Below, piece by piece: positions 2,774-50,810 of a stretch of DNA of 64,000 nt. Under the pieces are notes generated by a model. It was not told the DNA's origin. It saw nothing but the letters and a program-made list of their open reading frames with translations, and made no database searches. A program made the position numbers and the translations under genes. The stretch is from a candidate division TM6 bacterium GW2011_GWF2_32_72 (GTDB taxonomy: Bacteria; Babelota; Babeliae; Babelales; CAIQNR01), in assembly GCA_945882015.1 (NCBI GenBank), contig CAMCVM010000001.1:6888-70887 (forward strand), given 5' to 3'. Every line of letters begins with the position of its first letter. Position 1 is the first letter of the stretch.

Positions 2774-3580
2774 TTAAAAATTATAGCCTACTGAAACTCC
2801 AATTTGATTATGAGTATCAGTTACAACATTGACTGAAATATTTTCTGGTAATGCTATTTTTTCAAAGACAGCATAAGAACTTGCCCCCCACATAATACCT
2901 AAAGCAGTTCCAGTTACTACTTGTGATATAAAATGATGATTACCGGCAACACGCATTCCCATAATAAATCCTGTGTATAGACCAAAAGGAACACCGTAAT
3001 GCCAGCCTTTATAGAGTCCAAGGTACGTTGCCGTAAATGCAATAACAATAGCATGCCCTGAAGGAATTCCATGATAATGTTTCCATTGCCTACTAAATCC
3101 TGGATGCAGAGGCCGTAGGCCTACATCTAATTTACAATGCGCAACGGTTTGTTTAATAATAAGTTTAGAAATATGAGCCCATGCATATCCTAATGTAAAA
3201 ATCTGAAATGCTCTTCTGACTTGTCTATCTCTATGGCCAAAAGCAAAAAATCGACATACCCAAATAGGTATATCCATAATCTCATATTCAGCAAAATATT
3301 GTAACCACTGTGGAGGCTGATGTTTATTTTGGTGATTTACTGCATCATAAAAACAAGCATGCATTTTCTTGTCATAATGACGACCAATCAAAAAAAATGG
3401 GATAAAACCACTTGCAATTTTAAGAGTGCGTTGAGTACATAATTCTTGCCCAATTTGATATGAATCAACAAAAATATTACGCACAAAATCCCGCGTGTTT
3501 TCTGGAGAAATATCATCAAAAACACAAGAATTACCTTGTAAAGCAATAACTGAAAACAATAGAACCAATAGTTTCTTCAT
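2774..3580 (-). CDS. PAP2-family phosphatase with signal peptide, paralog 2
   Basis: GLRP, PSGH, RVAGNHHFISQV motifs; ends in GVSVGYNF; clear similarity to 1814-2650. Confidence 0.85.
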   Translation of the reverse strand: MKKLLVLLFSVIALQGNSCVFDDISPENTRDFVRNIFVDSYQIGQELCTQRTLKIASGFIPFFLIGRHYDKKMHACFYDAVNHQNKHQPPQWLQYFAEYEIMDIPIWVCRFFAFGHRDRQVRRAFQIFTLGYAWAHISKLIIKQTVAHCKLDVGLRPLHPGFSRQWKHYHGIPSGHAIVIAFTATYLGLYKGWHYGVPFGLYTGFIMGMRVAGNHHFISQVVTGTALGIMWGASSYAVFEKIALPENISVNVVTDTHNQIGVSVGYNF

Positions 3581-11300: not shown

Positions 11301-14237
11301 TGCGTCAGTAAATCCTCCATTTCTTATTTTTATTACATAACCCCTATAAATACCTAATGCTTTTACTATATCTGAACAAAAAATATCATTTTGATGATTA
11401 TTAATGTAATACAAAAATCCTTTTGTGCTTAATTTTACAAGATCTGAATTAGGTGCGCATTTGTCATATGCATCGGTAATAAAAATTAAAGACGCATGAT
11501 CAGGCCTAATATTTCCAAATGCAAAACCTGTAAAAAAATAAGAAAATGCTTGCTCTGAAATATCTAAAAATTTTTCAGGGATATCAGCATCATTTAATGA
11601 TGCTACTAAAGTTTTTCCTTTGTCATATATTTCTTGACCAATTCCCTTTCTCGCTTTGTTTATTGCATCTATTATTTTAGAAAGACCATCTGCCTGGGGA
11701 TTAAAGCCACCTTGCCGATATAATGATCGAGCAAAAGCATATAAAACTGCTGAATCAGAAAGCGTTTGGCTTGATTGCAAATCTTTACCTGTTTCTAACT
11801 TTTGAGCAAGCGTCACATATAAACGAGCTTGATGCAAATAAAAAAATTGACTATAGGTTAAAGCTTTATTTTCAGTTTCAAACAAAGTGTTAATTTGTGT
11901 ATAATTTTGTAAATTTTGCGCATATTGCTTAAAAAGAAGATCAATATTTTCAAAATATTGTTGAGCATCAAGATATTTTTGATTAGCAAATAAAGCCCAT
12001 TTTACGAGGTTTTTTGTGTCTATAATTGAACTAACATAATTATCTGCGCCAAGACATTGATAATTGTTATCATTTACTGTCGAACATGCTGCAATAATAG
12101 TTCCAATATCGCCTGAAACAGAACAGACTGGATTACCTTTTTCATCTTTCGCGCAATGATAAATACCTGCAAGCGCTTTTTCTAAATTTTGTAAAACCTG
12201 TAATGCTGCTTGTAATTCTGCAATACTTTTTTGCACCTCTGGATTAGTCTGGTCCAAACCAAAATAAAAAGAGAGTTCCTGCTCATAATCAGCAATAGCA
12301 GGTGCAAGCACTGTATCTAAATAGTCAAATATATTATCAAGAATCTGCTGTAACTGGTCCACAGTAAAGCCGCTTGGTGTGGTATTAATGTCTCCCAAAA
12401 CAGGAACTTGTAATGTAAAATTAATATAAGCTGTAATCCATGGTTTATAATAATTTACATATCCCTGAGTAGCTGATTGATACGCTTTAATAGCAGCTTG
12501 TGACCCTATTTTTTTTACATAAAGCACCAAATCTGGTTTATGCAATAACTCAAAAATGGCTGCTATCTTATTAAATGCATTTTTTGCATCTAATAAATAA
12601 GAACTTTGCGTCTTTTCGGCTGCTCCTTTTATAGTAAACTGTACCGCATTCAATGATGCTTGATACGCATCTGAAGCTTCTTTAAATAATGTAAGTATTG
12701 CCAAAATATAATTTTGATAATCAGTGTAAGATTTTAATAATAATGGCTGGTTTGCTTTTTGATAATAAGCAATAACTTGACCATACCAATTACTTGCTAA
12801 AGCTAAGCTCTTAAAAATCAAAGCATCAGTACTCATTGCTGTATTTTTATTATTTAATGCAGTACTAAAATTTTGTAATAATGTTTGCTGAACTGCTTGC
12901 GCAGTAAGGTTATTTGTAGTAACAAGGGCTGAACTAACAGTAAGAGGTGCAAGCGTACTTTTTATAAGATTTTTTCCATCAAAGGCAAAACTGGTGAACA
13001 ATGCTTGTAAATCTGCTGTAAGCATTAAAAAGTCTTTTTGTAATGCTTGAAGCCCAGGACTTTGGACTATTGCCGCTGTTGCAAATGGTGATTTGACAGC
13101 CGCTGCAGTTGAACTTACTACAGACATTGATGCAGGCGCTGTCGGTTTTACATATTGACTATAACCAGGGCTTACCTGCTTTACTGGTTCTTTTAGGGTG
13201 TTACCCTGACATGCTTGAACAGCTTTTTCAAGCTCTAATTGTGCCAAAAATGCATTCATTGTTCCTAGTTGTAATGCAATATAATTCTTTATTGCACTTT
13301 TAAAAGCAGTCACATCGGTAAAAATAATTGCAGCTTTGTCAGCAACCACTTGCGTGCTTTGTGGCGTCTTAAAGACATAATGCCCCAAAGTATAATCTTG
13401 ATTACCGGTCAAAAACTTATCAAGCGCATCATAAAAAATTTTTTCATAGACTTGCAATGCAGTTATATTAACTACCTTTTCAAAACTATATTTTTTAAGA
13501 GTTATTGCAGTTGGATTATAGGTGTTTGAAAGTGTTGTAACTAAAGTAAAAAACCAGCTGACAAGGGCACTATTTCTTGCATCTTGATATTGTGCAAAAA
13601 GCGCCTTTAATTCAGTTTGCTTGCCTTCCATCCACTGTTGCATGGCAGCAGCATTAGTACTATTTTTTTTGCTAATTGTTTGAGCTGTAGTAAATGCTTG
13701 ATTAACCACTTGCTCAATCTTATCCCATGATTGATCAAGTTGCGTAAGTTCACCGTTTTGTCCTTGTTCTGAATTAAAAGGAATAAAATTCTGGGCTACA
13801 TCCGATGCATAAAAATTTTCGTTCAGTTGTTTAAATTTACCTTGAACATATTGAATCAAAAAAGATTTATATTTTTGTAAGAGCATCATAGGGTAGCTGG
13901 TGTCTTCAAATGCCATTAAAAAATAAGAACCTGAACCATTTTGCAAAGCACTGTCTATAGTTGCTGGAACAGTAGCTGAAAGTACTTGCGTATTTTTATC
14001 ATCAGAAAACTGATCATAGAATCCGTACATTTGCAATAAAAGACGATAATAACTCTTCTGATTCAAGTCAGGATTATATAAATTTGCATAAAAAGCACCA
14101 AATCTATCTTGTAAAACTTGAGCATTATTCTGAAAATCTTGGGCCGGCACTGATGCTTGTACTGAGAGCGTTATAAACCCAGCAATAATAAATAAATAGC
14201 TACACCACGAAATATGATCGATTAATCTTTTTTTCAT
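8328..14237 (-). CDS. giant hypothetical exported protein (about 1970 aa)
   Basis: Uninterrupted ORF; start set at MKKRL behind GAGGTG; signal peptide ending SVQA; Q/A/Y-rich helical sequence; no recognisable catalytic motif. Confidence 0.85.
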   Translation of the reverse strand: MKKRLIDHISWCSYLFIIAGFITLSVQASVPAQDFQNNAQVLQDRFGAFYANLYNPDLNQKSYYRLLLQMYGFYDQFSDDKNTQVLSATVPATIDSALQNGSGSYFLMAFEDTSYPMMLLQKYKSFLIQYVQGKFKQLNENFYASDVAQNFIPFNSEQGQNGELTQLDQSWDKIEQVVNQAFTTAQTISKKNSTNAAAMQQWMEGKQTELKALFAQYQDARNSALVSWFFTLVTTLSNTYNPTAITLKKYSFEKVVNITALQVYEKIFYDALDKFLTGNQDYTLGHYVFKTPQSTQVVADKAAIIFTDVTAFKSAIKNYIALQLGTMNAFLAQLELEKAVQACQGNTLKEPVKQVSPGYSQYVKPTAPASMSVVSSTAAAVKSPFATAAIVQSPGLQALQKDFLMLTADLQALFTSFAFDGKNLIKSTLAPLTVSSALVTTNNLTAQAVQQTLLQNFSTALNNKNTAMSTDALIFKSLALASNWYGQVIAYYQKANQPLLLKSYTDYQNYILAILTLFKEASDAYQASLNAVQFTIKGAAEKTQSSYLLDAKNAFNKIAAIFELLHKPDLVLYVKKIGSQAAIKAYQSATQGYVNYYKPWITAYINFTLQVPVLGDINTTPSGFTVDQLQQILDNIFDYLDTVLAPAIADYEQELSFYFGLDQTNPEVQKSIAELQAALQVLQNLEKALAGIYHCAKDEKGNPVCSVSGDIGTIIAACSTVNDNNYQCLGADNYVSSIIDTKNLVKWALFANQKYLDAQQYFENIDLLFKQYAQNLQNYTQINTLFETENKALTYSQFFYLHQARLYVTLAQKLETGKDLQSSQTLSDSAVLYAFARSLYRQGGFNPQADGLSKIIDAINKARKGIGQEIYDKGKTLVASLNDADIPEKFLDISEQAFSYFFTGFAFGNIRPDHASLIFITDAYDKCAPNSDLVKLSTKGFLYYINNHQNDIFCSDIVKALGIYRGYVIKIRNGGFTDAACFLPQAQYFLNNLYTLRDQILKTTLFDPKVVMTQTDYQAKVAAFKKLLSINQILKQAQTQCALYRYILNINAQDLQWKELSENIEQLFGDFYKKTADALLLQEKKNFSSTNFSVVFDSQIFEDIINRYELAASYYSKVGNQKDFIAAKLAVTDTVAFQAYSSLIPVYNFSVDGVSLKSDVNQLLTVTNQQSLDTVLATYLPDTPVYLSRYNEQRIPVKMIPTLFKDYTELVNSSITEQNKIGNTSAAWMLKVVDLFAVPLYREHLQRQAPQDPRLEEYITDYKNQLTKALTTGIVINGKRIFAKMSVKIVQIDRSTVLSSSDNDDSDWVLIMNNIPVPPLPRFSNELNTAYTLYSNLYPLYAKGSDPLSYENKILFPLHDATQQAVAQSAMLNTYLAQALLIWSKIKQLQATDQYKKLVALKQDQRFKDSFGNYSDLYQKFQSLFIDLFGVYGSLLDFITAYGADSARGQIYKLYAQGYSQQIQINSLFFVGDPATSSYKAMAQLSCNYANKVAYYTSSLSQNYNLTSPAIITAIQSLEAAGDLCITQKIDPETTFYPSSNTVYPKPVPGFDALFNFKEAWKFYLIAEQQLVNFLQLDANAGQSFPDVQAKLMVIRAKILKVLTQLGSYYLARFGYNAYQQLLCDLTPDGQKATYIEKVSGVLAKDTTKTYAPEKIWKVENVAQIGIDANHPAYLYPAIGNYPQLFLQKDQFGNTIYNSSTTGVTFSLLPQDATSTVFQGVASIQQPSFQTLTKSGQIGSQQVGVADFMAGGTTSLQSDTLGKAYTIMKNDLLNAVYYYAQTIAIANAVLPATTSQSSDVSVSDIIPTQYIAQIFSKAPAFGTTASASQKLPVISVQASESGAVSRFYEIQNFINTSFVQWHSLSFANAQQLYPQTLQYWASQTTFGPDICNQCLKWIDAALAAKTGLLQAQWFSIACSWITNLHYLARNFYWQAYLAGVDYQTAQTDINNIISQLNDKQFIQGQQYIG

Positions 14238-14306
14238 AACACACCTCAAAGAGAAAGTTTGTATCAATCAAAAAAGTTTAAATCAATTGGTTTCAAAAAA
14301 GGAAGT

Positions 14307-16040
14307 TTACAATCGCTTTTGTAATGTTTCAAGCTCAGCAAGAGTTGTTGCTTGGTAAGAATTTTTGTCATCTCGATACTTTAAAAAACGGGGAAACCTT
14401 AACGCAAGTCCCAATTTTTTCTCAGATTTGCCCGCGGTATGAATAGGAGAATACGTAATTTCATCGGCCAAAACTTCACAAACTTGTGAGGGAACGACCC
14501 AAACATTAGGTGCTAGATTTTTATCACACCACACATTATTTGGTTGCACAGGCACAGCAAGCGCATCACATCGCATTTTAAGTTCAACCCATTGTTCATC
14601 GGTTAAACCAGTACCAACTTTTGCAACCGTTTCATACATGTTATCGCGTGGATTATAAATTCCAACAAGAAAAGCTCCTATACCAAACTGAGCTCGCTTA
14701 CCTTGACCTGCATAATACCCTAAAACCACCACATCAAGTGAATCAAGTAACTTATCACTCGCCTGATATTTTAATTTTATCCAATGAGAACTTCTTTTTC
14801 CTGGTTGATAATGAGCGTCTGGTCTTTTTATTACAAGACCTTCAAGCCCTGCTGCGATTTCTTGAATAAAATAAGCTTCTAGTTGCGAAGCAGTAACTAC
14901 TTTTTTTTCATCAATCAATTGTAATGTTTCATTAGTGTTGGGTTGCAAAAGATTAATGAGTGCGCTTCTGCGATCTTCGTGCCCAGCTTCAAGTAAGCTT
15001 TTTCCATCAAGGTACAATAAATCAAAAAGATATAATTGCAAAGGTAATTCTGAAGCCATTTCCTCGATTCCATGTTTACGGCGACGTTTTACTGTTTCTT
15101 GAAATGAAGCAAACATTTTCGTATTAGGATCATATACCATTGCTTCGCCATCAGCGATAAAGCTCTTAACCGGCAATTGCATACATGCTTTGACAAACTC
15201 AGGAAACATTTCTGACATATCAGTTAAGTTACGAGAAAAAAATCTAATAATTGGCTGTTGACCTGTTTTATCCACATGCACTTGCAAACGAAACCCATCA
15301 AGTTTTGGTTGCGCAACACAAGGACCTAATTTTGCAATAATTGACTCTACATCGGGTAAACGTTCTGCCGCTGCAGGTCTAATAGGAACACCTACTTTTA
15401 TATTCATACTCTTAATTGCATCAATCCCATCTTGCTTTAAGGTGTGAGCAATCAAACCAATATCAGCACACACATTGTAAGCATCTTGTAATGCATCGCT
15501 CAATGATTTGTCACCAGCTTGCATCCATGAAAGTGCATCCAATAATGTCATATCTGAAAAACCAAGACGTAATGTTCCTAAAATAATACGAACCGTATAT
15601 TTTGCAGAAACTGAATCAAGCTGTGTAATCAATTGTTGAATTGCCTGACTTTTTTGTTCTTGCGAACCGACACCTGATAGTCTTTCAAGAGCGACTAATG
15701 CTTGATAAACCTCTGACAATGTCATACTGCTTTGGCAAGCTTTATAAAAATGGGCTATAACAGAACCTAAATCACCCAATCGAGTAAGTTCTTCTTGAAT
15801 AACAAGTTCAGATTGACCGGCAACTTGGGCTACCACTTTTGCCATATTTTTTTGTGCAATATTAAATTGTGTTCCAATATGTGGTGGATTAAGTTCACCT
15901 AAGCATAAATAACAAATTAATGCTGCTTCTTGTGCCGATGCTTGCTGTAAAAGCTGTGCTAATTCTTGGGTCATTACCGTTCTAGATGCTGTCAACTCAA
16001 GCGATTGAAGCACTTGTGCTACTGCTTTAAATTGCATCAT
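14307..16040 (-). CDS. lig: ATP-dependent DNA ligase, archaeal/eukaryotic three-domain type
   Basis: N-terminal DBD (LGDLG, ILGTLRLG); motifs KLDG, DGEA, FDLLYLDG, EGLVIK, WIKLK, LRFPRF. Confidence 0.96.
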   Translation of the reverse strand: MMQFKAVAQVLQSLELTASRTVMTQELAQLLQQASAQEAALICYLCLGELNPPHIGTQFNIAQKNMAKVVAQVAGQSELVIQEELTRLGDLGSVIAHFYKACQSSMTLSEVYQALVALERLSGVGSQEQKSQAIQQLITQLDSVSAKYTVRIILGTLRLGFSDMTLLDALSWMQAGDKSLSDALQDAYNVCADIGLIAHTLKQDGIDAIKSMNIKVGVPIRPAAAERLPDVESIIAKLGPCVAQPKLDGFRLQVHVDKTGQQPIIRFFSRNLTDMSEMFPEFVKACMQLPVKSFIADGEAMVYDPNTKMFASFQETVKRRRKHGIEEMASELPLQLYLFDLLYLDGKSLLEAGHEDRRSALINLLQPNTNETLQLIDEKKVVTASQLEAYFIQEIAAGLEGLVIKRPDAHYQPGKRSSHWIKLKYQASDKLLDSLDVVVLGYYAGQGKRAQFGIGAFLVGIYNPRDNMYETVAKVGTGLTDEQWVELKMRCDALAVPVQPNNVWCDKNLAPNVWVVPSQVCEVLADEITYSPIHTAGKSEKKLGLALRFPRFLKYRDDKNSYQATTLAELETLQKRL

Positions 16041-16732: not shown

Positions 16733-18283
16733 TTATATGCTAATTCTTTCAAATTTTAGACCATCTAAAATGAAAGTAAATAAAGATTTCAAAACAAATA
16801 ACCCTGATATCAATGTTGCAAGGACACCTAACATCATTGTAATTGCAAATCCTTGCACTGGACCAGTACCAAATTTGTAAAGGACAAGCCCAACAATGAA
16901 TGTTGTAATGTTACCATCTAAGATAACAACCATTGCATCGGAAAATCCGATATCAACTGCCCGCTTAAACGTGACACCTTCAGTAAGGGTTTCTTTTATT
17001 TTTTCATAGATCAATACTGAACAATCAATAGCCATTCCAACAGTCAAAACCATACCGGCAATACCTGGCATAGTCAACGTTGCATCAAGCCATGACATTG
17101 CTACAATAATTAACAGTAGATTATAGATCAACACAAGAAAAGCAAGAAATCCTGCAGCTTTATAATAAAATAAGCTAAAAATAAGCAAGAATCCCATACC
17201 AATTAAGCAAGACATAAACCCTTGTCTAATCGATTCAGCACCCAAAGAAGGCCCGATTCTTCGTTCTTCTTCAAAGGTAACTGGCGCTAAAAACGCTCCT
17301 GATCTGAGCATTGTTGCAAGATTTTTTGCTGATTCATCAGTAAAGCTTCCATGGATATAACCAGAACCGCCAGTAATTGGTTCATTAACTGAGGGTGCAG
17401 AAATCACTTTATCATCAACGATCATAGCAACTTGTCTGCCACGTGCTTTTTTGGTTAAATCACCAAACTTTTGTGCGCCTTCAGTATTAAATTCAAAGTT
17501 AACAATTGCTTGCATTTGAGGACCTTTACCAAATGAAGCATTCTTTAGATCGCGACCAGTCAGATCTGTGTAATCTGGAACTAAATAATACGTAGTTCTG
17601 CCTTCACGTTCTTCTGTTACAATCATCATACCATCAGGCAAAACACCATCAAAACGTTCAAGTAAATCTTCTTCATGAGCTGCAGAACCTTCTACTTCTT
17701 TAATTTCAAGATTAGAAGTTTTGCCAATCATTTCTTTTGCTTGAGCAGGATTGTCAACACTTGGAAGTTCAATAATAATATGGTTTTCACCTTGACGAGA
17801 AACAGGAATTTCTGCAACGCCAAGCTCATTTAAACGTTTACGTAAAACATCAACGTTTCCTTCAACCGCGTTTTCTTTAATGAATTGAGCAACATGATCT
17901 GGAAGTACCAAACGAACAGTCTCTCCTTCATGATGAACGTTCATATTTAAATTACTTCTGACACGAAACGCTTGAAAAGCTTTATTAGCATCTTCAACAG
18001 TTTTAAAAGTTAAAAGAATTGCGTGCCCTTCAACTTTATGATTGACTGGCTCTACAATAGAATTGTCTTGTAAAATATCAACAAGACCCCTCATTCTATG
18101 CATTAATTCAGCTCGCACAGCTTCATCTACATTAACTTTAAGTGTTATATAAAATCCACCAACAAGATCAATTCCTCTTCGCGGATGGTCTTTTAAAGGC
18201 CATACAAAATAGATACTTACTGCCGCTAAAAGAATCCAGAAAGAAAAACTTACATATGATCCACGACGCGCCATACTGAACAT
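16733..18283 (-). CDS. secD: protein translocase subunit SecD
   Basis: GIDLVGG, RLNELGVAE, LRSGAF, IGPSLG, LTMPGIAGMVLTVGMAID, GTGPVQGFA; start reassigned to 18283 (GGGAG RBS) because the longer ORF overlaps tRNA-Leu. Confidence 0.96.
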   Translation of the reverse strand: MFSMARRGSYVSFSFWILLAAVSIYFVWPLKDHPRRGIDLVGGFYITLKVNVDEAVRAELMHRMRGLVDILQDNSIVEPVNHKVEGHAILLTFKTVEDANKAFQAFRVRSNLNMNVHHEGETVRLVLPDHVAQFIKENAVEGNVDVLRKRLNELGVAEIPVSRQGENHIIIELPSVDNPAQAKEMIGKTSNLEIKEVEGSAAHEEDLLERFDGVLPDGMMIVTEEREGRTTYYLVPDYTDLTGRDLKNASFGKGPQMQAIVNFEFNTEGAQKFGDLTKKARGRQVAMIVDDKVISAPSVNEPITGGSGYIHGSFTDESAKNLATMLRSGAFLAPVTFEEERRIGPSLGAESIRQGFMSCLIGMGFLLIFSLFYYKAAGFLAFLVLIYNLLLIIVAMSWLDATLTMPGIAGMVLTVGMAIDCSVLIYEKIKETLTEGVTFKRAVDIGFSDAMVVILDGNITTFIVGLVLYKFGTGPVQGFAITMMLGVLATLISGLFVLKSLFTFILDGLKFERISI

Positions 18284-18306
18284 ACAATTCTCCCACCAAT
18301 AATTAA

Positions 18307-18390
18307 TGCCGAAGAAGGGACTTGAACCCCCACGGGATTTCTCCCACAGCCACCTCAAGGCTGCGTGTCTGCCAGTTTCACCACTTCGGC
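18307..18390 (-). tRNA. tRNA-Leu (GAG); CCA not encoded
   Basis: GCCGAAGTGGTGAAACTGGCAGACACGCAGCCTTGAGGTGGCTGTGGGAGAAATCCCGTGGGGGTTCAAGTCCCTTCTTCGGCA; long variable arm. Confidence 0.95.
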
Positions 18391-18471
18391 ACCATTAATT
18401 TTAATGATTGCTTCAACACAGAATATTACCAGAAAGTTACACGCTTATCAAACTGAAAATCGTGTAAAAAC

Positions 18472-20001
18472 TTACTCAACTTCTTTTTTGATTGATTGAT
18501 CTGTTTTTTGTATTACATCTTCAGCCTTTTTTTCTTCTGCTGTTACATTACTCTCAACTGTTTTTACTACTTTTTCAGATGAACCGAATAATCCAAAAAT
18601 GCTTGTACCAAGAGCGCTGATTGTGCTATAGAAAGTCATTGGCAAGCTCGTAATCCATTGAGAAATTTGAGCAATAATTCCAACTCTTTCAGTTGCAACA
18701 TCTTTTTTTTCTTCAGCTTCATGTTTAATTGCAACATGCTTTTTTTCAAGTGCTTCATCTTCTTTTTCAAAAAAATCAGCTTCTTTTTTAAGATCAAGTT
18801 GATCATTTTTCAATACTGCCAAACGTGAAATAATACTTTGAGTATGCTCTTGCACGGATTGTGCCATTTGTTCAAAATAGCTTGTAAATGGCCCTGTCAG
18901 ATACTCATGCACTTTATTAACATCTTGCAAAAGACCTTTAGTATCATAATATTGTTTGCGAGCTTCTTTATCACTTAATTCACGCGCAACATTTTTAAAG
19001 ATTGACCAAGCTTCTTGTTCGTATTTACTACAAATGTCTACTTGTTGCAACACTACTTCAAGTGCCTCATCTATTTTATGATCAAGCTCTACAACAGCTT
19101 TTATATCAACTTTAAGTTGTTCAAGCTGGGTTTGCTTGTCCTTAATTTTATCAAAAAAGATTCTCTCTTTTTTATCCAAAAATCCTTGATCTTTTTTTTC
19201 TTTTTCAATAACTGCAATACCTAAATTAATAATATCTTCAAGTGGTCCTTGCTCAAGCCCTACATGTTGATAAAAACGATCAAGCTCTTTGTCTACTTCG
19301 TTTCTTTTATTAAAAAAAGTCATACGTGTTGTCATAACACGATTAAATGCTTCTTTGATTTGACTATACAATTCTTCAATTTTACGCCACCAATAATTTT
19401 TATACACCCAATTACCACTGGTTGCTTTTGAATCAACAGTATCTCGAAGATCTTTATCTTCTACCTGCCCATCAACTTCATCAACCTGTTGAGTATGGTC
19501 TTCATGTTTTCCTGGCATTATTGGTTGCGATTTTATGGGATTAACTTTTTCTTCTTTTGTTGCTGGCAGAGAGCGTACAACCGAAAGTGGCTTCTGGGTA
19601 TCTTGTAAACTAACTGGTATTACTGTAAAAGGCTGCGTAGGCTGAACAACTGATTCTGATGGGATTACAGCAACAGGCTGATTAACTTGTGGTTCAACCG
19701 GAACTATTACAGCTGATTGCATAGTTTGAGGTTCAACAGTAACAGGAGGATTCGCTGCTGGCAAAATAGAAACAGTTGATTGATTTGATGCAACAGGTTG
19801 CGCCCCAACCACTACTTGTGTTGGCTGGTTTACTTCATCAGCTTTTTCAGGCGGAGTAACCGATACAGCTGCCTGTTGTTCTGGTTGCACTGTGAGAGTA
19901 ACAGGAGTGCCTGCCGTTGTTGACACAGCGCCCAAAAGATTAATTACACTTAAGAAAGAACCTACTCCAACAATGCCAGCTATTATTCTCATTACTTTCA
20001 T
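18472..20001 (-). CDS. hypothetical exported protein with P/V/Q-rich linker and coiled-coil domain
   Basis: Hydrophobic N-terminus, about 150 aa low-complexity region, SGNWVYKNYWW motif, heptad-rich helices, C-terminal hydrophobic stretch; GGGAG RBS before ATG 20001. Confidence 0.8.
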   Translation of the reverse strand: MKVMRIIAGIVGVGSFLSVINLLGAVSTTAGTPVTLTVQPEQQAAVSVTPPEKADEVNQPTQVVVGAQPVASNQSTVSILPAANPPVTVEPQTMQSAVIVPVEPQVNQPVAVIPSESVVQPTQPFTVIPVSLQDTQKPLSVVRSLPATKEEKVNPIKSQPIMPGKHEDHTQQVDEVDGQVEDKDLRDTVDSKATSGNWVYKNYWWRKIEELYSQIKEAFNRVMTTRMTFFNKRNEVDKELDRFYQHVGLEQGPLEDIINLGIAVIEKEKKDQGFLDKKERIFFDKIKDKQTQLEQLKVDIKAVVELDHKIDEALEVVLQQVDICSKYEQEAWSIFKNVARELSDKEARKQYYDTKGLLQDVNKVHEYLTGPFTSYFEQMAQSVQEHTQSIISRLAVLKNDQLDLKKEADFFEKEDEALEKKHVAIKHEAEEKKDVATERVGIIAQISQWITSLPMTFYSTISALGTSIFGLFGSSEKVVKTVESNVTAEEKKAEDVIQKTDQSIKKEVE

Positions 20002-20028
20002 AACAATCACTCCCTATGCATTAAGAAC

Positions 20029-21839: not shown

Positions 21840-22439
21840 ATGCTTAATTTCAATAAGTTCATTTTAATCATTGCAAGCTTAATATTTTCTAATACTGAAT
21901 TAATTCAAGCAGGCGGATCTTTTTCAAAAGGATTTTCGAGTCAGAAAGAAGATGATGAAAGAGAAAGACAACAAGAAGCTGAATTAGAGGCTCAAAGAGC
22001 AGCAAGTGCTCAAAGAAAAGCTGAATTAAATAGAAAAAAAGATCTAAAAACTCTTGATCAAGACAATCGTAAAAAAGCAGCAATTGAAGCTTTAAAAGCA
22101 TTGCCAGAAATGCAAAGAAAGTACTTAGAAAAATTCCCTGCTCCTGAAAATGATGTCGAACTTAGAGCATCAATTAAAAATGGCTTTAAATTAGCTTGGC
22201 AGGAATATTACACACAATTGACTATAAGAACATTTTTTGCTGAAAAAAAATATACCGGTCTTGGTTCTGATCAAACACTTACACAAAAAGAAAACGAAGT
22301 CGCAGAACGATGTGGAAGAGTTGCTGCTGAACTGTTTCTTCGTGGGAAAAAGCAGGATGATACTTCTACTCAAGAAATACAAGCAATCTATGCACAAATA
22401 CTAAAAGCTGACAGAGATGCTTTGCAACGTAAAAGCTAA
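21840..22439 (+). CDS. hypothetical exported protein, candidate effector
   Basis: Signal peptide ending LIQA, mature N-terminus GGSFSK, charged coiled coil; GGAGG RBS. Confidence 0.82.
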   Translation: MLNFNKFILIIASLIFSNTELIQAGGSFSKGFSSQKEDDERERQQEAELEAQRAASAQRKAELNRKKDLKTLDQDNRKKAAIEALKALPEMQRKYLEKFPAPENDVELRASIKNGFKLAWQEYYTQLTIRTFFAEKKYTGLGSDQTLTQKENEVAERCGRVAAELFLRGKKQDDTSTQEIQAIYAQILKADRDALQRKS

Positions 22440-23835: not shown

Positions 23836-25068
23836 CTACCACAATTCTTTTTTAAGCACCTCAGGCAATTCAATGGTACCATCTTCTTTTTGATACGTTT
23901 CCATCAAAGCAACCATCAAGCGGGGTAATGCTAATGATGATGCATTTAATGTGTGCACATACTGTGTTTTTTCAGTTGCATTGGCACGATATCTAATTTT
24001 ACCACGACGCGCTTGAAAGTCTGAACAGTTACTTGCAGAAGACACTTCATAGTATTGTTTTTGTCCCGGCAACCATACTTCAATATCGTATGTTTTTGAA
24101 GACTGAAATGAACAATCTTGTGCTGCCAATAAACTTACTCGATAATGTAAACCAAGCGCTTGTAAAATTTCTTCGGCACAATTGACCATCATTTCCAATT
24201 CTTGCCCTGATTTTTCTGGCTCACAAATTGAAAACAGTTCAACTTTTTCAAATTGATGAATACGAATCAAACCCCGTTCATTTTTACCATAGTTACCCGC
24301 TTCACGTCTAAAGCAGCTGGTCCAAGAAGTTAAACGAATCGGTAATTGATCAACCGGTAAAATTTCATTGCGATATAAATTTGCAAGTGCAACTTCAGAT
24401 GTTGGGATTAAATACAGACCATCTTGCGAAACTGCAAAAACATCATCTTTAAATTTTGGAAAGTTACCTGAAATGGTTAATGTTTCGTCATTGACTAACG
24501 CTGGTGGCAGCGTTACTTCAAAGCCATGTCTACTATTATGCTTAACCATAAACATTGCAAGCGCATAGACTAACTTTGCTGCTTGTCCACGATAAAAAAC
24601 AAAATTAGAAGCTGCCATAGTTGCTGCAGCCTCAAGATTAAACCAATTATTAATCTGTCCTAATTCTAAATGGTGTTTTGGCTCAAAAGAAAATACTGGT
24701 TTTTGGCTATATTCTCTTACCACTACATTTTCGGCTTTGTTACCTTCTGGAACTTCATCAAACGGCAAATTAGGGCACGTTAATTCTAATTTTTTCAAAG
24801 CTAGCTCAGCTACTTCAAGTTGTGCTTCTTGCTCTTTTAAAAGCTTGCCCACTTCAATTGAACGGTCTCTTAAAACTTGTGTTACTCCACCTTTTGCTTG
24901 TTGCGCTAAATCATTTTTTTCTTTGCGCAACAGTTCAACTGAGACCAAAAGTGCTCGTACTTGCTCGTCGAGCTTAAGTAATTGTTCAATAGGAAACGCC
25001 GGATCTTTTTTTTGTATTTTAGCCCCAATTTTAACAGGGTCCTGACGAAGTAGCAATTTATCTATCAT
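23836..25068 (-). CDS. serS: serine--tRNA ligase
   Basis: LIPTSEV, CFRREAG, GLIRIHQFEKVE, YDIEVWLPG, EVSSASNC, HTLNAS. Confidence 0.98.
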   Translation of the reverse strand: MIDKLLLRQDPVKIGAKIQKKDPAFPIEQLLKLDEQVRALLVSVELLRKEKNDLAQQAKGGVTQVLRDRSIEVGKLLKEQEAQLEVAELALKKLELTCPNLPFDEVPEGNKAENVVVREYSQKPVFSFEPKHHLELGQINNWFNLEAAATMAASNFVFYRGQAAKLVYALAMFMVKHNSRHGFEVTLPPALVNDETLTISGNFPKFKDDVFAVSQDGLYLIPTSEVALANLYRNEILPVDQLPIRLTSWTSCFRREAGNYGKNERGLIRIHQFEKVELFSICEPEKSGQELEMMVNCAEEILQALGLHYRVSLLAAQDCSFQSSKTYDIEVWLPGQKQYYEVSSASNCSDFQARRGKIRYRANATEKTQYVHTLNASSLALPRLMVALMETYQKEDGTIELPEVLKKELW

Positions 25069-25282
25069 GAATGTATATCCAATAGTAAAGAGTATAATTT
25101 TACTTCTTAAAATACCTTATTTTAACAACAATTAAAAGTTTCCATTAAATGAGCTTAATAAGAAAATAATCAATAAAATTCTCTATTTATAAAAAAAAAG
25201 AAATATTTGAATAATAATTTTTTCCTGTTAATATTTACAACTGAAATAAGTAAAATTATATTAATCAATAAATAATAAAAAC

Positions 25283-26101
25283 ATGAAAAAAAATCTATTA
25301 ATCACATTCTTCTTGACAGCAATTATCACTCATTTTCCTCTGTATTGTGCTACACCTCAAAATCTTTCTATAGAAGCTAGGCGGGCAAGGTTGCTAGCTA
25401 TAAATCCTCACCAGGCAGTCCCTATGCCTGTTTCTGCAGCTCAACCTGCTCATACTCAACCTGTTCTTAAAGCTGCTCCTTCAGTTCAACTTCCTCCAGT
25501 TCAAGGTTTTCCTTCAGTTCAGCCTATTCCTGCAGCTCCTCAACATATTCTTGCAGTTCAAGCTGCTCGTCCTGAAGAACTACCTCTAAAAGTTTTTTTT
25601 GCAAAAGAAGATTATGAAGCGTGGCAAAAGCTTGAGCAATACTTAAAAGAACTAGAAAGAAGATTTCCATTTAATAATCATCAAATTAGTGAAATAATTA
25701 AACAATTTGCGTGGGCCAAAAAGGATTGCGTTTTAACATTCTATCTAAAACGCCAAACAGAAAAAAATAATCCCGATGCCGATCAAGCACTTGATAAAGC
25801 TATAGGTATGTTTAATAAGTTTAGAAGAGCGGTTGATCAAGGTAAAGAAGGTGTACCTAATATTATAGATCCAATAGAAAAATATCTGGGTGACACTCAT
25901 TACTATAAAAATGTTTTAGTTCCTGGAAACACACCTCCAGCGACACAGTCTGGTGTTATATGTCATTTTTGCGCAAAAGTTTTTAATCGTGATTATATGC
26001 TAAAAAGGCATGTGAGGAACTCTCATCAGGTTGAAGAGGCTCATAAAAAAGACTTAGCAAATAAAACAACCAGCGGTGATATTACAGTTTCAAAAATCTA
26101 A
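25283..26101 (+). CDS. exported protein with Pro/Gln-rich region and C-terminal C2H2 zinc finger
   Basis: Signal peptide MKKNLLITFFLTAIITHFPLYC; CHFCAKVFNRDYMLKRHVRNSH matches C-x2-C-x3-F-x5-L-x2-H-x4-H. Confidence 0.85.
   Translation: MKKNLLITFFLTAIITHFPLYCATPQNLSIEARRARLLAINPHQAVPMPVSAAQPAHTQPVLKAAPSVQLPPVQGFPSVQPIPAAPQHILAVQAARPEELPLKVFFAKEDYEAWQKLEQYLKELERRFPFNNHQISEIIKQFAWAKKDCVLTFYLKRQTEKNNPDADQALDKAIGMFNKFRRAVDQGKEGVPNIIDPIEKYLGDTHYYKNVLVPGNTPPATQSGVICHFCAKVFNRDYMLKRHVRNSHQVEEAHKKDLANKTTSGDITVSKI
25430..25572 (+). repeat. degenerate tandem repeat of about 18 nt encoding P/Q/A/V hexapeptides
   Basis: Recurring cagttcaa/cagctcaa...ttcct units (PSVQLP PVQGFP SVQPIP). Confidence 0.6.
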
Positions 26102-26218
26102 CAATCTTATAGTTTACATAAGAGAATAATAAGGTCGCGGTAAGCTTAATTATACAAATAGTTATTAATCGCATTACTGTAAAACTATGCAGAATAAGAA
26201 AATATAAAAAAGAACATA

Positions 26219-26252
26219 AAAAAAGAAGGCATTTTAAAATGCCTTCTTTTTT
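26219..26252. terminator. bidirectional terminator downstream of HU
   Basis: Perfect palindrome AAAAAAGAAGGCATTTT|AAAATGCCTTCTTTTTT. Confidence 0.8.
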
Positions 26253-26271
26253 ATTGCAATCAATCTATAGA

Positions 26272-26550
26272 TTAAACAGATTTGATTAATTCACGTAAAT
26301 GCTTACCCGCTTTAAAACGAGGAACGTTTACTGCTTCAAGATCAATCCGTTCTTTTGTTGAAGGATTAATTCCCTTGCGAGCTGGACGACGTGATACCCA
26401 ATAGGTACCAAATCCTGTGATAGCAACTTTATCGCCACGTCTTAGAGTGCGTTCGATAATACAAATCAAAGAGTCTAATACACGAGAAACATCTTTTTTG
26501 CTAAAAGTTGTTTCTTCACTTAAAGAGTTTATCAATTCACTTTTATTCAT
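26272..26550 (-). CDS. hup: DNA-binding protein HU
   Basis: MNKSELI...ITGFGT...RPARKGINPST...VPRFKAGKHL. Confidence 0.96.
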   Translation of the reverse strand: MNKSELINSLSEETTFSKKDVSRVLDSLICIIERTLRRGDKVAITGFGTYWVSRRPARKGINPSTKERIDLEAVNVPRFKAGKHLRELIKSV

Positions 26551-32374: not shown

Positions 32375-32882
32375 AACTGCGCAATGTATCCAGCATTTTT
32401 AGAGGTAATGTTATATTTTCATCAATGCCTTTATTTGCAAGTGCATCAGCTACAGTATTATATTCACGTTCAACATGTTTAAATAAAGCTTTAATAGTTC
32501 CAAGTTCTGAAAAAATAGCAGCGTGCAACTGTTGCAACTCTGGTTTTCTCACTTTATAGGTAGCATCAAGTTGGCGAATTAATAATTGTGAGTCAGAAAT
32601 GATAGTAACCCCTTCACCTGGCTTTATCTCTTTTTTAAGCAGCATAACACCAATCAGCAAAGCCAAATATTCAGCTTCATTATTAGTTTTTTTGCCTAAT
32701 ACAAAGCCAGCTTTTACCCTATCTTGCGTGTCTTTTTTAAGATAAATCCCAGCTCCAGCTTTACCCGGATTACCCCGTGAAGCTCCATCAACACGAAGTT
32801 CCCATTCATACTTGTTTTTTTTGCCGGTTAAGGTTTCATAGACCGTTTCAAAAATAGATTTTTGAACTTCATTACTCATCAA
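32358..32882 (-). CDS. rnhA: ribonuclease HI
   Basis: VDGASRGNPG, TNNEAEY, SDSQL, HVEREYNTVADALAN. Confidence 0.95.
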   Translation of the reverse strand: MMSNEVQKSIFETVYETLTGKKNKYEWELRVDGASRGNPGKAGAGIYLKKDTQDRVKAGFVLGKKTNNEAEYLALLIGVMLLKKEIKPGEGVTIISDSQLLIRQLDATYKVRKPELQQLHAAIFSELGTIKALFKHVEREYNTVADALANKGIDENITLPLKMLDTLRSYEIFI

Positions 32883-33607
32883 GCAACTTCTCCTGAGTCT
32901 TGAACACGCTCTTTACTGTATAAAAAGCGATAACACCCTTTACACTCGATCAACTGATGATCAAGCACTGATAAAAAATCTTGATGAGGAATACTATAAA
33001 AACAGGCTGTACAGCTTCCATTAACAACTGGAACAACGGGATTAGGAACACAATTACGCATGCGTGAATATTTTTCCATCCATTCTTGCGGTACTTGTTT
33101 TTCTTTTGTTAGTCGTTCAGGCTGTGTGCTTTGTAGTAATTTTTCTAATTGATTAATGCGACTTTTTTTTGCATCTAATAAAGCTTGCACCGCACCTTGT
33201 TTTTCAAGCAACTCCTGCTCATGTTTATGCATCTCTTTTTCAAGCGATTCTAAACTATTCCAAGCAATCATTAAGGTGCTTTCATAATCATGTTGCTTTT
33301 TTTTAAGACGATTAATTTCTTCTTTAATTGCTTGATGCTCTCTGTCATTTTTAACACCAGCAAGGCGCTCTTTAGACTTTCTTTCTTGTTCATCAAAATC
33401 TTTCATTTGATGTTCTTTATTTTCTACTTCTTTTTTCAAAGTTTTGATTTTTGTCTGTCCTGCTTGCAACTGGCCTGCATAATCTAACAAAACTTTGTCC
33501 AAGTGACTTATTTCTTGAATAAGTGTTTGAATTTCTTTTTCCATGACAAAAAGAGATTGATCAAAAGTAATCAGATCAATAAACGAATCGAATGCATTTT
33601 TTACCAC
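32879..33607 (-). CDS. coiled-coil plus C4 zinc-ribbon protein (DUF164/CT398-like)
   Basis: Long coiled coil then CTAC...CKGCYRFLY. Confidence 0.9.
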   Translation of the reverse strand: MVKNAFDSFIDLITFDQSLFVMEKEIQTLIQEISHLDKVLLDYAGQLQAGQTKIKTLKKEVENKEHQMKDFDEQERKSKERLAGVKNDREHQAIKEEINRLKKKQHDYESTLMIAWNSLESLEKEMHKHEQELLEKQGAVQALLDAKKSRINQLEKLLQSTQPERLTKEKQVPQEWMEKYSRMRNCVPNPVVPVVNGSCTACFYSIPHQDFLSVLDHQLIECKGCYRFLYSKERVQDSGEVA

Positions 33608-38548: not shown

Positions 38549-40150
38549 TTAGTTAGATAATACAAGAGCCTTTGCTTTATCTAAAGCTTTTTGAGTCAAT
38601 TGATTATTATAAGCTGTAATTGCATCTTGATATGGGCTTAAAGCTTTTTTCAGTGCTTCTTTTGCCTTACTATAATTACTTTTAGCAGCTTTTTTTGCTT
38701 GAGTATTTTCAACTTCTGTCTGATATGATTCTAAAGAAATCATAAAATCTATTACAGCTTCTTTAATACCTCTTGGTAAAGTATTGAGAAATTCAACATC
38801 AGAAGCAACTTGTTTATTACATGCTTCTTGAGCCTGAGTATCTAATTGATTAAATTCCTCATAGTTCATTCCAGTAAAGAATAAGAAATAAAAAATGTTA
38901 TCACAGATATATTCTGTTGAAAAACCTCGTGATTCAATATTTAAGCCATTTGAAATTTTATTTTCTAAACGATTTAGAATACACATTGTTACAAATTCAA
39001 CAATTGCAAGGTTTTTTTCATGGTCTTTAATTACACTTCTTGCTCTTACTGCTTTAACGTTAGCAACTACAAACTTTGCTGCAATTCCAGTAACTAAAGC
39101 TACACGAGCCATTTCTTCTGATACAAAGTTAGCAGTTAAAGCACCACCAGCAGTTGCCAAAGTTCTTGTAGCAAAACCGTGACCTTTTGCTAATTTATTA
39201 GCAGCATATCCACCAACAAGACCAAATGCAGTTTTTCCTGGATTTGCTATTACTGCATCTTTAACTGTATTAAAAGCAGCATAAGCTGTTTCTGTTGGGT
39301 TAGCCATAACAGTTTGAGCTGCTTGCTTTACACCATCGACAGTTAAAGCTGTAACAGCATGAAAGCCATCTTGTAAACGGCCAACGCCTGCTTGCGCAGC
39401 TTGAGGAGCATTGAGAACTGCATCAGTAACATAACCTTGTGCAAATTCAGCTGCATGTTGTACTTGTTGACTTGCAACGCCTACACCTTCTTTAAGATCA
39501 GCTAATTCGTTTTTTGCTACTTGCACTACTGATTGAGCAGTTTCATTAACAGATTCTGCTAACACTTGTGCATTATTTTGCACAGTTGCACCAAGAGCTT
39601 GTGCTGTCCCAGCGTAATCAAAGTTTCTTACTGTATGCTGTGCATGTTGTGCGGCATCAAATACATATTGAGTTCCATGAGCAACTTTTTCTTGTAGCGT
39701 TTGAGCAGCTAACTCACCTTTTTCAAGGGCAACTTCAAAAGCTTGACCATAATTGTAATCTCTAACGGCATGCCCTGCATTTTTTAATGCATCAAACCCT
39801 GACCCAACAAAACGAGTAACTGAATCTGCCATTGTACCAACTGCTTGCCCAAATGGCGTTTGTACTACTTGCTCAGCAGGAGGAGTAGCTTGATTAACAA
39901 TTCTTACTATTATTGGGTTGCCTACTGGGTTGACCATAGAATCAACAACAGTTGTAGGATTAAGAGTAATAAATTCTCCACCAGTTACGCCTTTTCCTTC
40001 AGCATCAAAAAGCTTCGAAAGGCCGGATGAACCTTTTCCTAAAAGATTTTTAAAAATCGTCTGCGCACCTGTTGAAAGTATGTTTGACTTTGTTGTAGCA
40101 GTCACACCAAGTGACAACAATAGAACTATTGAAAACATTTGTTTCTTCAT
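38549..40150 (-). CDS. hypothetical exported Ala/Gln/Val-rich helical-repeat protein
   Basis: Signal peptide, amphipathic repeats, Gly/Ala hydrophobic hairpin, GGAGG RBS. Confidence 0.85.
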   Translation of the reverse strand: MKKQMFSIVLLLSLGVTATTKSNILSTGAQTIFKNLLGKGSSGLSKLFDAEGKGVTGGEFITLNPTTVVDSMVNPVGNPIIVRIVNQATPPAEQVVQTPFGQAVGTMADSVTRFVGSGFDALKNAGHAVRDYNYGQAFEVALEKGELAAQTLQEKVAHGTQYVFDAAQHAQHTVRNFDYAGTAQALGATVQNNAQVLAESVNETAQSVVQVAKNELADLKEGVGVASQQVQHAAEFAQGYVTDAVLNAPQAAQAGVGRLQDGFHAVTALTVDGVKQAAQTVMANPTETAYAAFNTVKDAVIANPGKTAFGLVGGYAANKLAKGHGFATRTLATAGGALTANFVSEEMARVALVTGIAAKFVVANVKAVRARSVIKDHEKNLAIVEFVTMCILNRLENKISNGLNIESRGFSTEYICDNIFYFLFFTGMNYEEFNQLDTQAQEACNKQVASDVEFLNTLPRGIKEAVIDFMISLESYQTEVENTQAKKAAKSNYSKAKEALKKALSPYQDAITAYNNQLTQKALDKAKALVLSN

Positions 40151-50101: not shown

Positions 50102-50413
50102 TTACATAACTTCTTTGCATTGACCACACACCCGCGCTTTTTTTCCATCTTTAAGCTCAAGAGCTCCCACGCGACATGGTTTTTTGCAAGAAGGACAAAT
50201 TGGCATTACTTTTGAAAGACAAATGTATGACTCTTCTCTCTTGATCCCAGGAATATCTCCCTGTTTTCGAGCTTTTACATGTCGAATTGTAACCGCCACA
50301 TCCTTAACCATTATTTTACCTGTTTTAGGTGAAATAGCAATCACAGAAGAGGTTTTACCTTTATCTTTTCCAGAAATAACTAAAACTTTATCATTTTTCT
50401 TTACGCGCATCAT
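50102..50413 (-). CDS. rplX: 50S ribosomal protein L24
   Basis: VKKNDKVLVISGKDKGK; C-terminal CPSC...CGQC. Confidence 0.97.
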   Translation of the reverse strand: MMRVKKNDKVLVISGKDKGKTSSVIAISPKTGKIMVKDVAVTIRHVKARKQGDIPGIKREESYICLSKVMPICPSCKKPCRVGALELKDGKKARVCGQCKEVM

Positions 50414-50429
50414 TTTTTTGTACCTCTAT

Positions 50430-50810
50430 TTAAACCACTTCAGGAGCCAAAGAAACAATCTTTGGATACCCTTTGTATCCAGCGCGAGGACGAATCTCAC
50501 GAGCGATTGGTCCAAATATACGTGTTGCAACCGGTTCATCTTCTTTATTGATGATTACCGCTGCATTTTCACTAAATCTTATCCAACTACCATCTTCGCG
50601 TTGTATTTCTTTTCTTGTGCGAACAATAACGGCTGTTACTACATCGCTCTTTTTAACTCCGCCACCAGGAATTGCTTTTTTTACTGCACATTTAATTTTA
50701 TCACCCAAACGTGCAAAACGTTTTCTTGTGCTTCCAATGACATGAATACATTGAAGCAACTTTGCACCTGAGTTATCTGCAACTTCTAAGTAAGTTTGTT
50801 TTTGTATCAT
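50430..50810 (-). CDS. rplN: 50S ribosomal protein L14
   Basis: [23 protein letters not shown]. Confidence 0.98.

Follow-up and report, generated by a model that had tools for sequence, protein, structure and literature searches.

A candidate exported, possibly host-directed protein with a single classical C2H2 zinc finger in a Dependentiae-type genome

We report on a 64-kb stretch of bacterial DNA (64,000 nt, called here the window in its full length) and, within it, on an open reading frame (ORF) of 272 aa with an ATG start at positions 25283–26101 of the plus strand, which stands as it was given in a preliminary description made from the sequence alone. The deduced product, referred to here as the zinc-finger protein, joins a predicted Sec-type export signal to a single C2H2 zinc finger and is encoded in a variable position of the genome. 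From these features, and by analogy with the signal-bearing, eukaryote-like proteins described in the same phylum, we propose that it might be an exported accessory protein of the Dependentiae directed at the host, a proposal with about even chances of being correct.

A single finger with the features of the classical C2H2 type

The finger lies close to the C-terminal end of the protein, with the arrangement C227-x2-C230-x3-F234-x5-L240-x2-H243-x4-H248 (C-HF-C-AKV-F-NRDYM-L-KR-H-VRNS-H). Translated in six frames, the window contains this exact pattern a single time, at 25961–26026 as the preliminary description correctly stated, and none of 200 shuffled windows has it; a looser C2H2 pattern likewise has one match in the window, with one or more in 5 of the 200 shuffles. 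Conservation of the finger among homologues, on which the original interpretation had been made to depend, was found to be strict: the two Cys, the Phe and the two His are invariant in the eight family members (8/8), all zinc ligands included, and Leu240 is kept in seven of them and replaced by Phe in the distant relative P0012.

Comparison with Pfam gave matches to zf-C2H2_4 (PF13894; E 0.0025, 18.8 bits, gathering cut-off 27), zf-C2H2 (PF00096; E 0.0044, 17.8 bits, gathering cut-off 25.2) and zf-C2H2_jaz (E 0.054). The PF00096 profile, suggested beforehand as a check, thus recognized the finger, yet with a score under its cut-off; a single finger of 23 residues seldom attains a Pfam cut-off. 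At E ≤ 0.1, zf-C2H2_4 matches all eight family members and zf-C2H2 six of them. A profile of the family, run on 1.84 billion representative sequences, retrieved 152 proteins with E-values of 1e-3 or lower. With P0001, P0007 and P0012 set aside, the 150 that were listed match through the finger alone (profile positions ~220–270), and most of those from outside the family align in 3–16 stretches each. By regular expression, 145 of 147 stored non-family matches contain at least two fingers (median 8), with a His-His spacing of 4 residues in 955 fingers, of 3 in 199 and of 5 in 22, and 14 of the 15 profile matches scanned exceed the Pfam cut-off for zf-C2H2. The Krüppel-type spacing claimed originally (C-x2-C-x12-H-x4-H, within the classical range C-x2-4-C-x12-H-x3-5-H), and its distinction from Ros/MucR, therefore hold up, as the profile retrieves multi-finger C2H2 proteins.

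Among structures, the PDB gave 30 matches at E ≤ 1, of which 26 are C2H2 fingers of eukaryotes, headed by 2yt9 (E 0.0016) with ZBTB38, ZFAT and ADR1 next; the E-values of the top two are flattering, since the aligned 'SSG' is presumably in part a cloning tag. Residues ~217–266 of the ESM Atlas model superpose on fingers from Kruppel, PLAGL, chinmo and CP190 with template-modelling (TM) scores of 0.51–0.61 over 43–56 residues, within a model whose overall predicted local distance difference test score (pLDDT) is 0.46. By language-model features, the nearest clusters (score 0.94–0.95) are not confined to eukaryotes and comprise small proteins with a single finger from Nucleocytoviricota, Uroviricota, Thermoproteota, Nitrososphaerota and Actinomycetota; these share just 98–117 of 256 features with the zinc-finger protein and are distant relatives at best. 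Because these clusters are viral, phage, archaeal and actinomycetotal, a eukaryotic donor is not established, and a viral or archaeal source is equally possible.

Kept in the finger are a Lys after the second Cys, an Arg two residues past the first His and, at positions 5 and 6 of the helix, Arg/Lys; residues at these places contact DNA in canonical fingers. In the usual numbering of the DNA-contact positions of C2H2 helices, homologues vary at positions -1 (R/S/N), 2 (Y/H/R/Q) and 6 (R/T), with the scaffold and the Lys and Arg that contact the DNA backbone fixed. With this evidence, we are highly confident that the motif is a genuine classical C2H2 finger, with a predicted beta-beta-alpha fold.

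Other assignments for the motif were considered. A Ros/MucR finger was rejected, given a spacer of 12 residues and no match to PF05443 even at E ≤ 10, and a beta-beta-alpha nuclease of the HNH type was dropped by reasoning alone, no catalytic motif having been noticed.

A small family with an invariant block before the finger

Only six close relatives were found among 5.8 billion clusters (59–89% identity, 170–298 aa, all metagenomic), plus one distant relative, the fragment P0012, with 27% identity and located on a 1142-bp contig; the family amounts to three clusters at 50% identity in the 1.84 billion representatives. Residues invariant in all eight members are Y207, Y208, V211, N216, P218, P219, A220, Q222, S223, G224, C227, C230, F234, K241, H243, R245 and H248. 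Many of these fall in a family-specific block that immediately precedes the finger (Table 1), and its PPxQSG motif is present in 8/8 family members vs. 1/147 of the other stored matches. P0012 has C-x4-C in place of C-x2-C with its ligands intact, so the finger is retained despite the change in spacing.

Sequence variation was not uniform along the protein: mean pairwise identity is 0.89 for the signal, 0.86 for the pre-finger block, 0.76 for the finger, 0.71 for the helical core, 0.70 for the P/Q region, 0.60 for the post-signal segment and 0.55 for the tail. The entire core is missing, in frame, from P0007, a protein of 170 aa whose contig measures 66 kb, so the constant architecture consists of signal, spacer, pre-finger block and finger. 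Separately, P0005 looks like a mosaic, being identical to the zinc-finger protein in 24/24 residues of the tail, 19/22 of the finger and only 50/105 of the core; this, and the loss of the core in P0007, could be due to recombination or to chimeric assembly.

Further searches did not extend the family. NCBIfam, PHROGs and PADLOC scans of the protein returned no families, and a scan of genome contigs with the family alignment gave 580 pattern matches, stemming from the signal peptide, and no relatives. Likewise, tblastn found nothing in 50,697 phage records and one irrelevant match (E 0.9) in plasmids; no shorter relatives of residues 200–272 were found, and P0012 retrieved only itself. In six-frame fragments of the window and of 11 related loci, a hidden Markov model of the family recovered the gene itself and no paralogue (1/1644).

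The N-terminal signal and the probable location of the protein

The protein starts with MKK and a 17-residue hydrophobic stretch (L5 to Y21), with the helix-breaking Pro19, Leu20 at -3 and Cys22 at -1, in line with the n/h/c layout of signal peptides and the -3/-1 rule. With a hydropathy of 2.81 over 11 residues and two Lys ahead, residues 1–22 satisfy a crude hydropathy rule that 9 of 38 window ORFs pass, and the Sec-type N-terminus reported beforehand was thereby recovered as export-type. In seven sequences, 17 of these 22 residues are invariant, including T12, T16, H17 and C22. Genes for SecY and SecDF are present in the window. On these sequence features, export past the inner membrane is quite probable, and cleavage of the signal after C22 is likely.

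A lipoprotein was rejected: the canonical lipobox is L-[AS]-[GA]-C, and here the invariant C22 is preceded by [PS]-L-Y, with a Tyr directly before the Cys unlike in that motif.

The strong conservation of residues 1–22 is unusual for a cleaved signal, and the protein may instead reside in the envelope; this is the main rival reading, which we regard as real although doubtful. It would then be anchored in the inner membrane, or lie in the periplasm or at the surface, its Pro-rich stretch spanning the periplasm and its core and zinc knuckle forming an envelope module or a surface contact with the host. The N-terminus is indeed the best-conserved segment of the family, with T12, T16 and H17 invariant inside the hydrophobic stretch, and a 19-residue segment exceeds a transmembrane hydropathy threshold; the length of the Pro-rich spacer varies, and the succession of an anchor with a His, a Pro-rich spacer and a C-terminal domain resembles the layout of TonB. 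However, there is no match to TonB_C, TolA or any other envelope family even at E ≤ 10, and the gene is accessory and absent from 11/11 related loci, as would not be expected of core envelope machinery. Leu at -3 and Cys at -1, together with Pro19, suit a cleavage site, and we know of no periplasmic protein with a classical Cys2His2 finger.

Spacer, helical core and tail

Residues 23–43, a short stretch that links the signal to the spacer, carry the conserved motif R-W-x-[KR]-L-L-x-x-N-P. The RRAR basic patch noticed at first does exist (residues 33–36); it is not a feature of the family, because it appears in 1/7 sequences and R34 is replaced by Trp in 6/6 close homologues. Lys-rich inserts follow the signal in 4/7 sequences. 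The P/Q/A/V region is likewise present, with 57 residues (44–100) that include 12 P, 11 A, 8 Q and 7 V, and an 18-nt tandem repeat of 3.8 copies (25491–25561) builds part of it. Its length differs by indels among the seven sequences: QPAH repeats are expanded in P0002, and the region is mostly absent from P0004 and P0006 (2/7). Judging from this pattern, it looks like a spacer rather than a defined activation domain.

The helical core that had been proposed (residues 101–205) contains long stretches free of Pro and Gly, and a crude script assigned propensity helices to residues ~105–124, 136–150, 153–160 and 169–185. Its helicity is thus plausible, with weak matches to designed helical bundles only: a search of the PDB retrieved these plus noise (best E 0.077), the ESM Atlas gave no usable feature match and structural TM scores of at most 0.46, and no Pfam or NCBIfam family was matched. 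In the tail, a third His (H254) is invariant in 7/7 sequences.

In summary, the notion that the protein is built like a transcription factor was overdrawn, as there is one finger, RRAR is not conserved, the P/Q region looks like a spacer of variable length and there is no conserved nuclear-localisation signal.

The His content of these regions bears on another explanation, that of an exported protein for zinc handling, in which the C2H2 site and the His-containing repeats would capture periplasmic or host zinc. The mature protein has nine His, QPAH-type repeats occur and are expanded in P0002, and there is an export signal. Yet the His-bearing repeats are absent from P0004 and P0006, the scaffold, whose surface Lys/Arg are conserved, is of the recognition-finger kind, and no known family for metal uptake was matched, so we deem this explanation very improbable.

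An accessory gene in a variable slot of a Dependentiae-type genome

A search of genome contigs with the neighbouring seryl-tRNA synthetase (SerS) located 11 loci. In the best six, SerS is 57–60% identical; four of these (L001, L002, L004 and L005) are named Candidatus Dependentiae, Babeliales or TM6, L006 is labelled as an uncultured Pseudomonadota and L007 as 'uncultured bacterium'. The remaining five loci, with 39–43% identity, are from unrelated phyla. The gene order TatD-HU-[slot]-SerS-DUF58 is common to the window, L002, L005, L006 and L007. Because of the SerS neighbour and of this local synteny, we place the window, as far as sequence comparison can tell, in a genome of the Dependentiae/TM6 type, with ~35% GC.

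None of the 11 related loci encodes the zinc-finger protein, and a scan of them for the C2H2 pattern was negative. The slot between HU and SerS is empty in L005 (about 100 bp); it contains a 399-aa ADP-ribosylglycohydrolase in L002 (E 2.7e-54), a 187-aa ORF of no known family in L006, and a 518-aa ankyrin-repeat protein plus a 125-aa unknown ORF in L007, and L001 has a 1167-aa unknown ORF divergent from SerS. By eye, most slot ORFs (in L001, L002, L006 and L007) have signal-like N-termini, among them the ADP-ribosylglycohydrolase and the ankyrin-repeat protein. Alignment of the intergenic sequences indicates that the hairpin of the HU terminator and an element upstream of SerS keep their positions in L005, L006 and the window, with the inserted genes lying between them. 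By these comparisons, the HU-SerS slot (25069–26271 in the window) is a hot spot where Dependentiae genomes carry lineage-specific genes, and the zinc-finger gene is one such accessory gene.

The element upstream of SerS, AAACTTTWRATTG (25129–25141, minus strand), is kept in 2/11 loci, L005 and L006 (5980–5992 in the latter), and may be a promoter or leader of SerS.

Flanking elements and composition of the gene

The gene stands alone between the divergent SerS and the convergent HU genes (Table 1). The best promoter match of the region (10/12) precedes it, in an AT-rich stretch where promoter-like sites are not enriched (12 observed vs. 8.2 ± 2.5 in shuffles). Downstream, a perfect palindrome has a fold energy of -18.3 kcal/mol (z -5.9; equally stable shuffles, 0/200), and hairpins follow HU at the same position in L005 and L006. 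With an A-run at one side and a T-run at the opposite side, the palindrome is able to end transcription of both genes that converge on it and is likely a two-way terminator common to the zinc-finger gene and HU. An Rfam scan around the gene gave only sub-threshold matches, on this terminator hairpin.

The composition of the gene is that of the genome, with a GC content of 36.5% vs. 35.5 ± 1.7% and a GC at third codon positions (GC3) of 18.7% vs. 22.9 ± 3.1% in 32 ORFs; consequently, it is not a recent compositional foreigner, and a recent foreign origin on these grounds was rejected. A 12-nt direct repeat (AATAAGAAAATA), with just two copies in the 64-kb window, flanks the gene where the insert starts and stops relative to the empty site of L005. 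Shuffled intergenic pairs share a word of at least 12 nt in 50 of 1000 trials with mononucleotide shuffling and in 107 of 1000 with a Markov model, so the repeat is marginal and was not retained as an insertion scar; at most it hints at an insertion junction, and it may be due to chance.

Table 1. Position of the zinc-finger gene, its predicted protein regions and its flanking features (coordinates in the window)
Feature	Coordinates	Strand	Details
Zinc-finger protein ORF	25283..26101	+	ATG start, 272 aa (stop codon within coordinates)
Sec-type signal peptide, or possibly uncleaved signal anchor (predicted)	25283..25348	+	Residues 1-22
P/A/Q/V-rich spacer, variable length	25412..25582	+	Residues 44-100; from composition, repeat and homologue lengths
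Probable helical core	25583..25897	+	Residues 101-205; from crude helix propensity
Pre-finger block YY-x-N/H-V ... N-x-PPA-x-QSG	25898..25960	+	Residues 206-226; family-specific
Single classical C2H2 zinc finger	25961..26026	+	Residues 227-248
Variable tail with third conserved His (H254)	26027..26098	+	Residues 249-272
Seryl-tRNA synthetase (SerS)	23836..25068	-	Divergent neighbour; anchor for synteny and taxon
HU-type DNA-binding protein	26272..26550	-	Convergent neighbour
Promoter-like site TTTACA-17-TATATT	25234..25262	+	Ends 21 nt 5' of the ATG
12-nt direct repeat, copy 1, AATAAGAAAATA	25157..25168	+	Upstream flank of the zinc-finger gene
12-nt direct repeat, copy 2, AATAAGAAAATA	26193..26204	+	Downstream flank of the zinc-finger gene
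Perfect 17+17-nt palindrome	26219..26252	.	A-run on one side, T-run on the other; between the zinc-finger gene and HU

A possible role in the host

In Dependentiae, a group that inhabits protist cells, eukaryote-like proteins bearing signal peptides are taken as secreted into the protist host via the type II system (PMC4378268; PMC4776705; PMC6561590). In Chromulinavorax, signal peptides are reported on 44% of the coding sequences and on 78% of the ankyrin proteins, and outer-membrane vesicles were seen (PMC6561590). The type II system is the sole secretion system that one Dependentiae genome study reports as detected (PMC4378268), and its components, with two gspD copies, are listed among the core genes of TM6 (PMC4776705). 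The preliminary description had seen a paradox in a finger of DNA-binding type on an exported protein; a Sec signal joined to a eukaryote-type domain is the usual format of presumed host factors in this phylum, and the paradox is thereby removed.

We envisage that the N-terminal signal would guide the unfolded chain through SecYEG, with cleavage after Cys22 as suggested by the motif, and that the protein would leave the periplasm through the type II system or in outer-membrane vesicles, as the literature on relatives suggests. The P/A/Q/V stretch would be a flexible spacer of variable length, and the core, dispensable in one natural variant, might, speculatively, mediate oligomerisation or a second contact. 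In the reducing cytoplasm or nucleus of the host, the finger would bind zinc and dock on a host nucleic acid or protein.

Several observations weigh against this proposal. Sec by itself reaches the periplasm only, where the CxxC pair could become oxidized, and no gsp gene was found among the 50 window ORFs scanned, so that the type II step rests on other genomes. The export call derives from a crude hydropathy rule and the -3/-1 rule, and an uncleaved anchor fits equally well with a 17-residue hydrophobic stretch that is the best-conserved part of the family and contains the invariant polar residues T12, T16 and H17. Both Pfam zf-C2H2 scores are short of the gathering cut-off, the ESM Atlas model is poor overall (pLDDT 0.46), and all relatives of the protein come from metagenomes. 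Additionally, neither a basic patch nor one for nuclear localisation is conserved (RRAR is confined to the window protein), and a lone finger rarely binds DNA sequence-specifically, its binding usually being weak.

The finger might also work inside the bacterium, as part of a regulator that is tethered to the membrane, or whose N-terminus is no signal at all, and that binds the bacterium's own DNA or RNA. The net charge is positive after the hydrophobic stretch too, which weakens the positive-inside argument, but a topology with the N-terminus in and the C-terminus out is favoured by the two Lys at the very start of the protein. Single fingers from outside eukaryotes can bind DNA, for instance that of AFV1p06 (PMC3541406), and PF00096 is recorded in 59 prokaryotic proteins (PMC7017128); on the other hand, the gene is not conserved among relatives and the layout of its product matches that of the signal-bearing accessory proteins of the phylum. 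We therefore consider a bacterial regulator improbable.

Returning to the exported, host-directed protein, we see the chances that it acts on the host as roughly balanced, whereas binding to DNA in the host nucleus is unlikely. The preliminary description proposed a nucleomodulin, a bacterial effector that works in the host nucleus, or else a zinc-finger interaction effector; with ~28 kDa, the mature protein is small enough for passive nuclear entry. In its boldest form, and by analogy with the MoHTR fingers of a fungus, the proposal would make it the first bacterial effector with a classical C2H2 finger, leaving a Dependentiae parasite through Sec and the type II system, entering the nucleus of a protist and binding host DNA or chromatin; we would grant this form only a small chance. 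If it were true, the changes at helix positions -1, 2 and 6 would represent retargeting to other hosts or sites, and the finger was perhaps acquired in the amoebal 'melting pot' shared with giant viruses.

More generally, should the protein prove to be secreted and to bind a host target, the reprogramming of hosts by secreted zinc fingers, so far reported from a fungus, would extend to bacteria, and a product of 28 kDa with one finger would be a small, tractable handle on how the little-studied Dependentiae manipulate protists. Likewise, the variable HU-SerS slot may help to find further host-interaction genes in Dependentiae genomes.

Other features of the window

On the minus strand, a 1979-aa ORF (8328–14267) matches no Pfam family at E ≤ 0.01, and the neighbouring ORF 14307–16040 encodes an ATP-dependent DNA ligase with N-terminal, adenylation and C-terminal domains of the archaeal/eukaryotic type. 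Two tandem paralogues of the PAP2 family (1814–2650 and 2774–3580, minus strand) both have signal-like N-termini. Signal-like N-termini were also found in four further ORFs without a Pfam family (962–1321, 18472–20010, 21840–22439 and 38549–40150), which is consistent with the high share of exported orphans reported for Dependentiae. A tRNA-Leu (gag) gene (18306–18391, minus strand) overlaps the TTG given as the start codon of the SecDF ORF (16733–18358, minus strand), so the true start of SecDF is probably further downstream. A 195-aa Cys-rich ORF of no family (50184–50771, plus strand) lies on the strand opposite to the ribosomal-protein operon and is unlikely to be a real gene. Finally, ORF 32879–33607 (minus strand) encodes a coiled-coil hairpin protein of the CT398-like kind, the family being named for a chlamydial protein.

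Comparison with known systems

Among the papers listed by our literature search, none connects Dependentiae or TM6 with zinc fingers, and the word 'zinc' is absent from the main texts of the two TM6 genome papers. The search likewise returned no secreted C2H2 effector from bacteria, Legionella included, the cases retrieved being fungal or oomycete ones and an Ehrlichia paper with one passing mention. Classical C2H2 fingers are rare outside eukaryotes and are described as 'almost exclusively' eukaryotic (PMC3541406).

The finger itself is closest to the TFIIIA/Krüppel type (PF00096/PF13894), with which it shares the C-x2-C-x12-H-x4-H spacing, the Phe/Leu core, the Lys past the second Cys and the Arg past the first His. 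Retrieval works both ways between the family profile and multi-finger proteins, and the PDB and Atlas matches are to classical fingers. Unlike these proteins, ours is bacterial, has a single finger and an export signal, and lacks a TGEKP-type linker or an array; its finger is under the Pfam cut-off and is preceded by a family-specific invariant block. The Ros/MucR proteins (PF05443) are also bacterial and have a Cys2His2 zinc site. They differ in a Cys-to-His spacer of ~9 residues, vs. 12 in our finger, and a larger globular fold, in agreement with the lack of a PF05443 match.

Lone classical fingers with extensions exist outside eukaryotes in proteins of archaeal viruses, giant viruses, phages and archaea; one of them, AFV1p06 of an archaeal virus, binds both zinc and DNA (PMC3541406). 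In contrast to our protein, they are without an export signal. The resemblance to TonB/TolA is one of layout only (a hydrophobic segment with a His, a Pro-rich spacer and a C-terminal domain), and the C-terminal domain here is a zinc finger, with no match to TonB_C or TolA at E ≤ 10.

For a possible mode of action, the best analogues are MoHTR1, MoHTR2 and MoHTR3 of the rice blast fungus, small secreted nuclear effectors with a signal peptide and one C2H2 domain. MoHTR2, of 110 aa, joins both of these features (PMC12488382), and MoHTR3 reaches the host nucleus and requires its signal peptide (PMC10189765). Nevertheless, these are fungal proteins secreted through the endoplasmic reticulum towards a plant host, and lack the P/Q spacer and the helical core; the likeness is one of architecture only.

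The closest setting is that of the ankyrin-type candidate effectors of Dependentiae such as Babela and Chromulinavorax, a class that is itself inferred in the literature. They belong to the same phylum, combine a Sec signal with a eukaryote-type domain and occupy accessory, variable positions, and in L007 an ankyrin protein is found in the very slot of our gene. The difference is in the domain, which here is a C2H2 finger: what is new is thus a classical finger within the known Dependentiae class of proteins that join a signal to a eukaryote-like domain.

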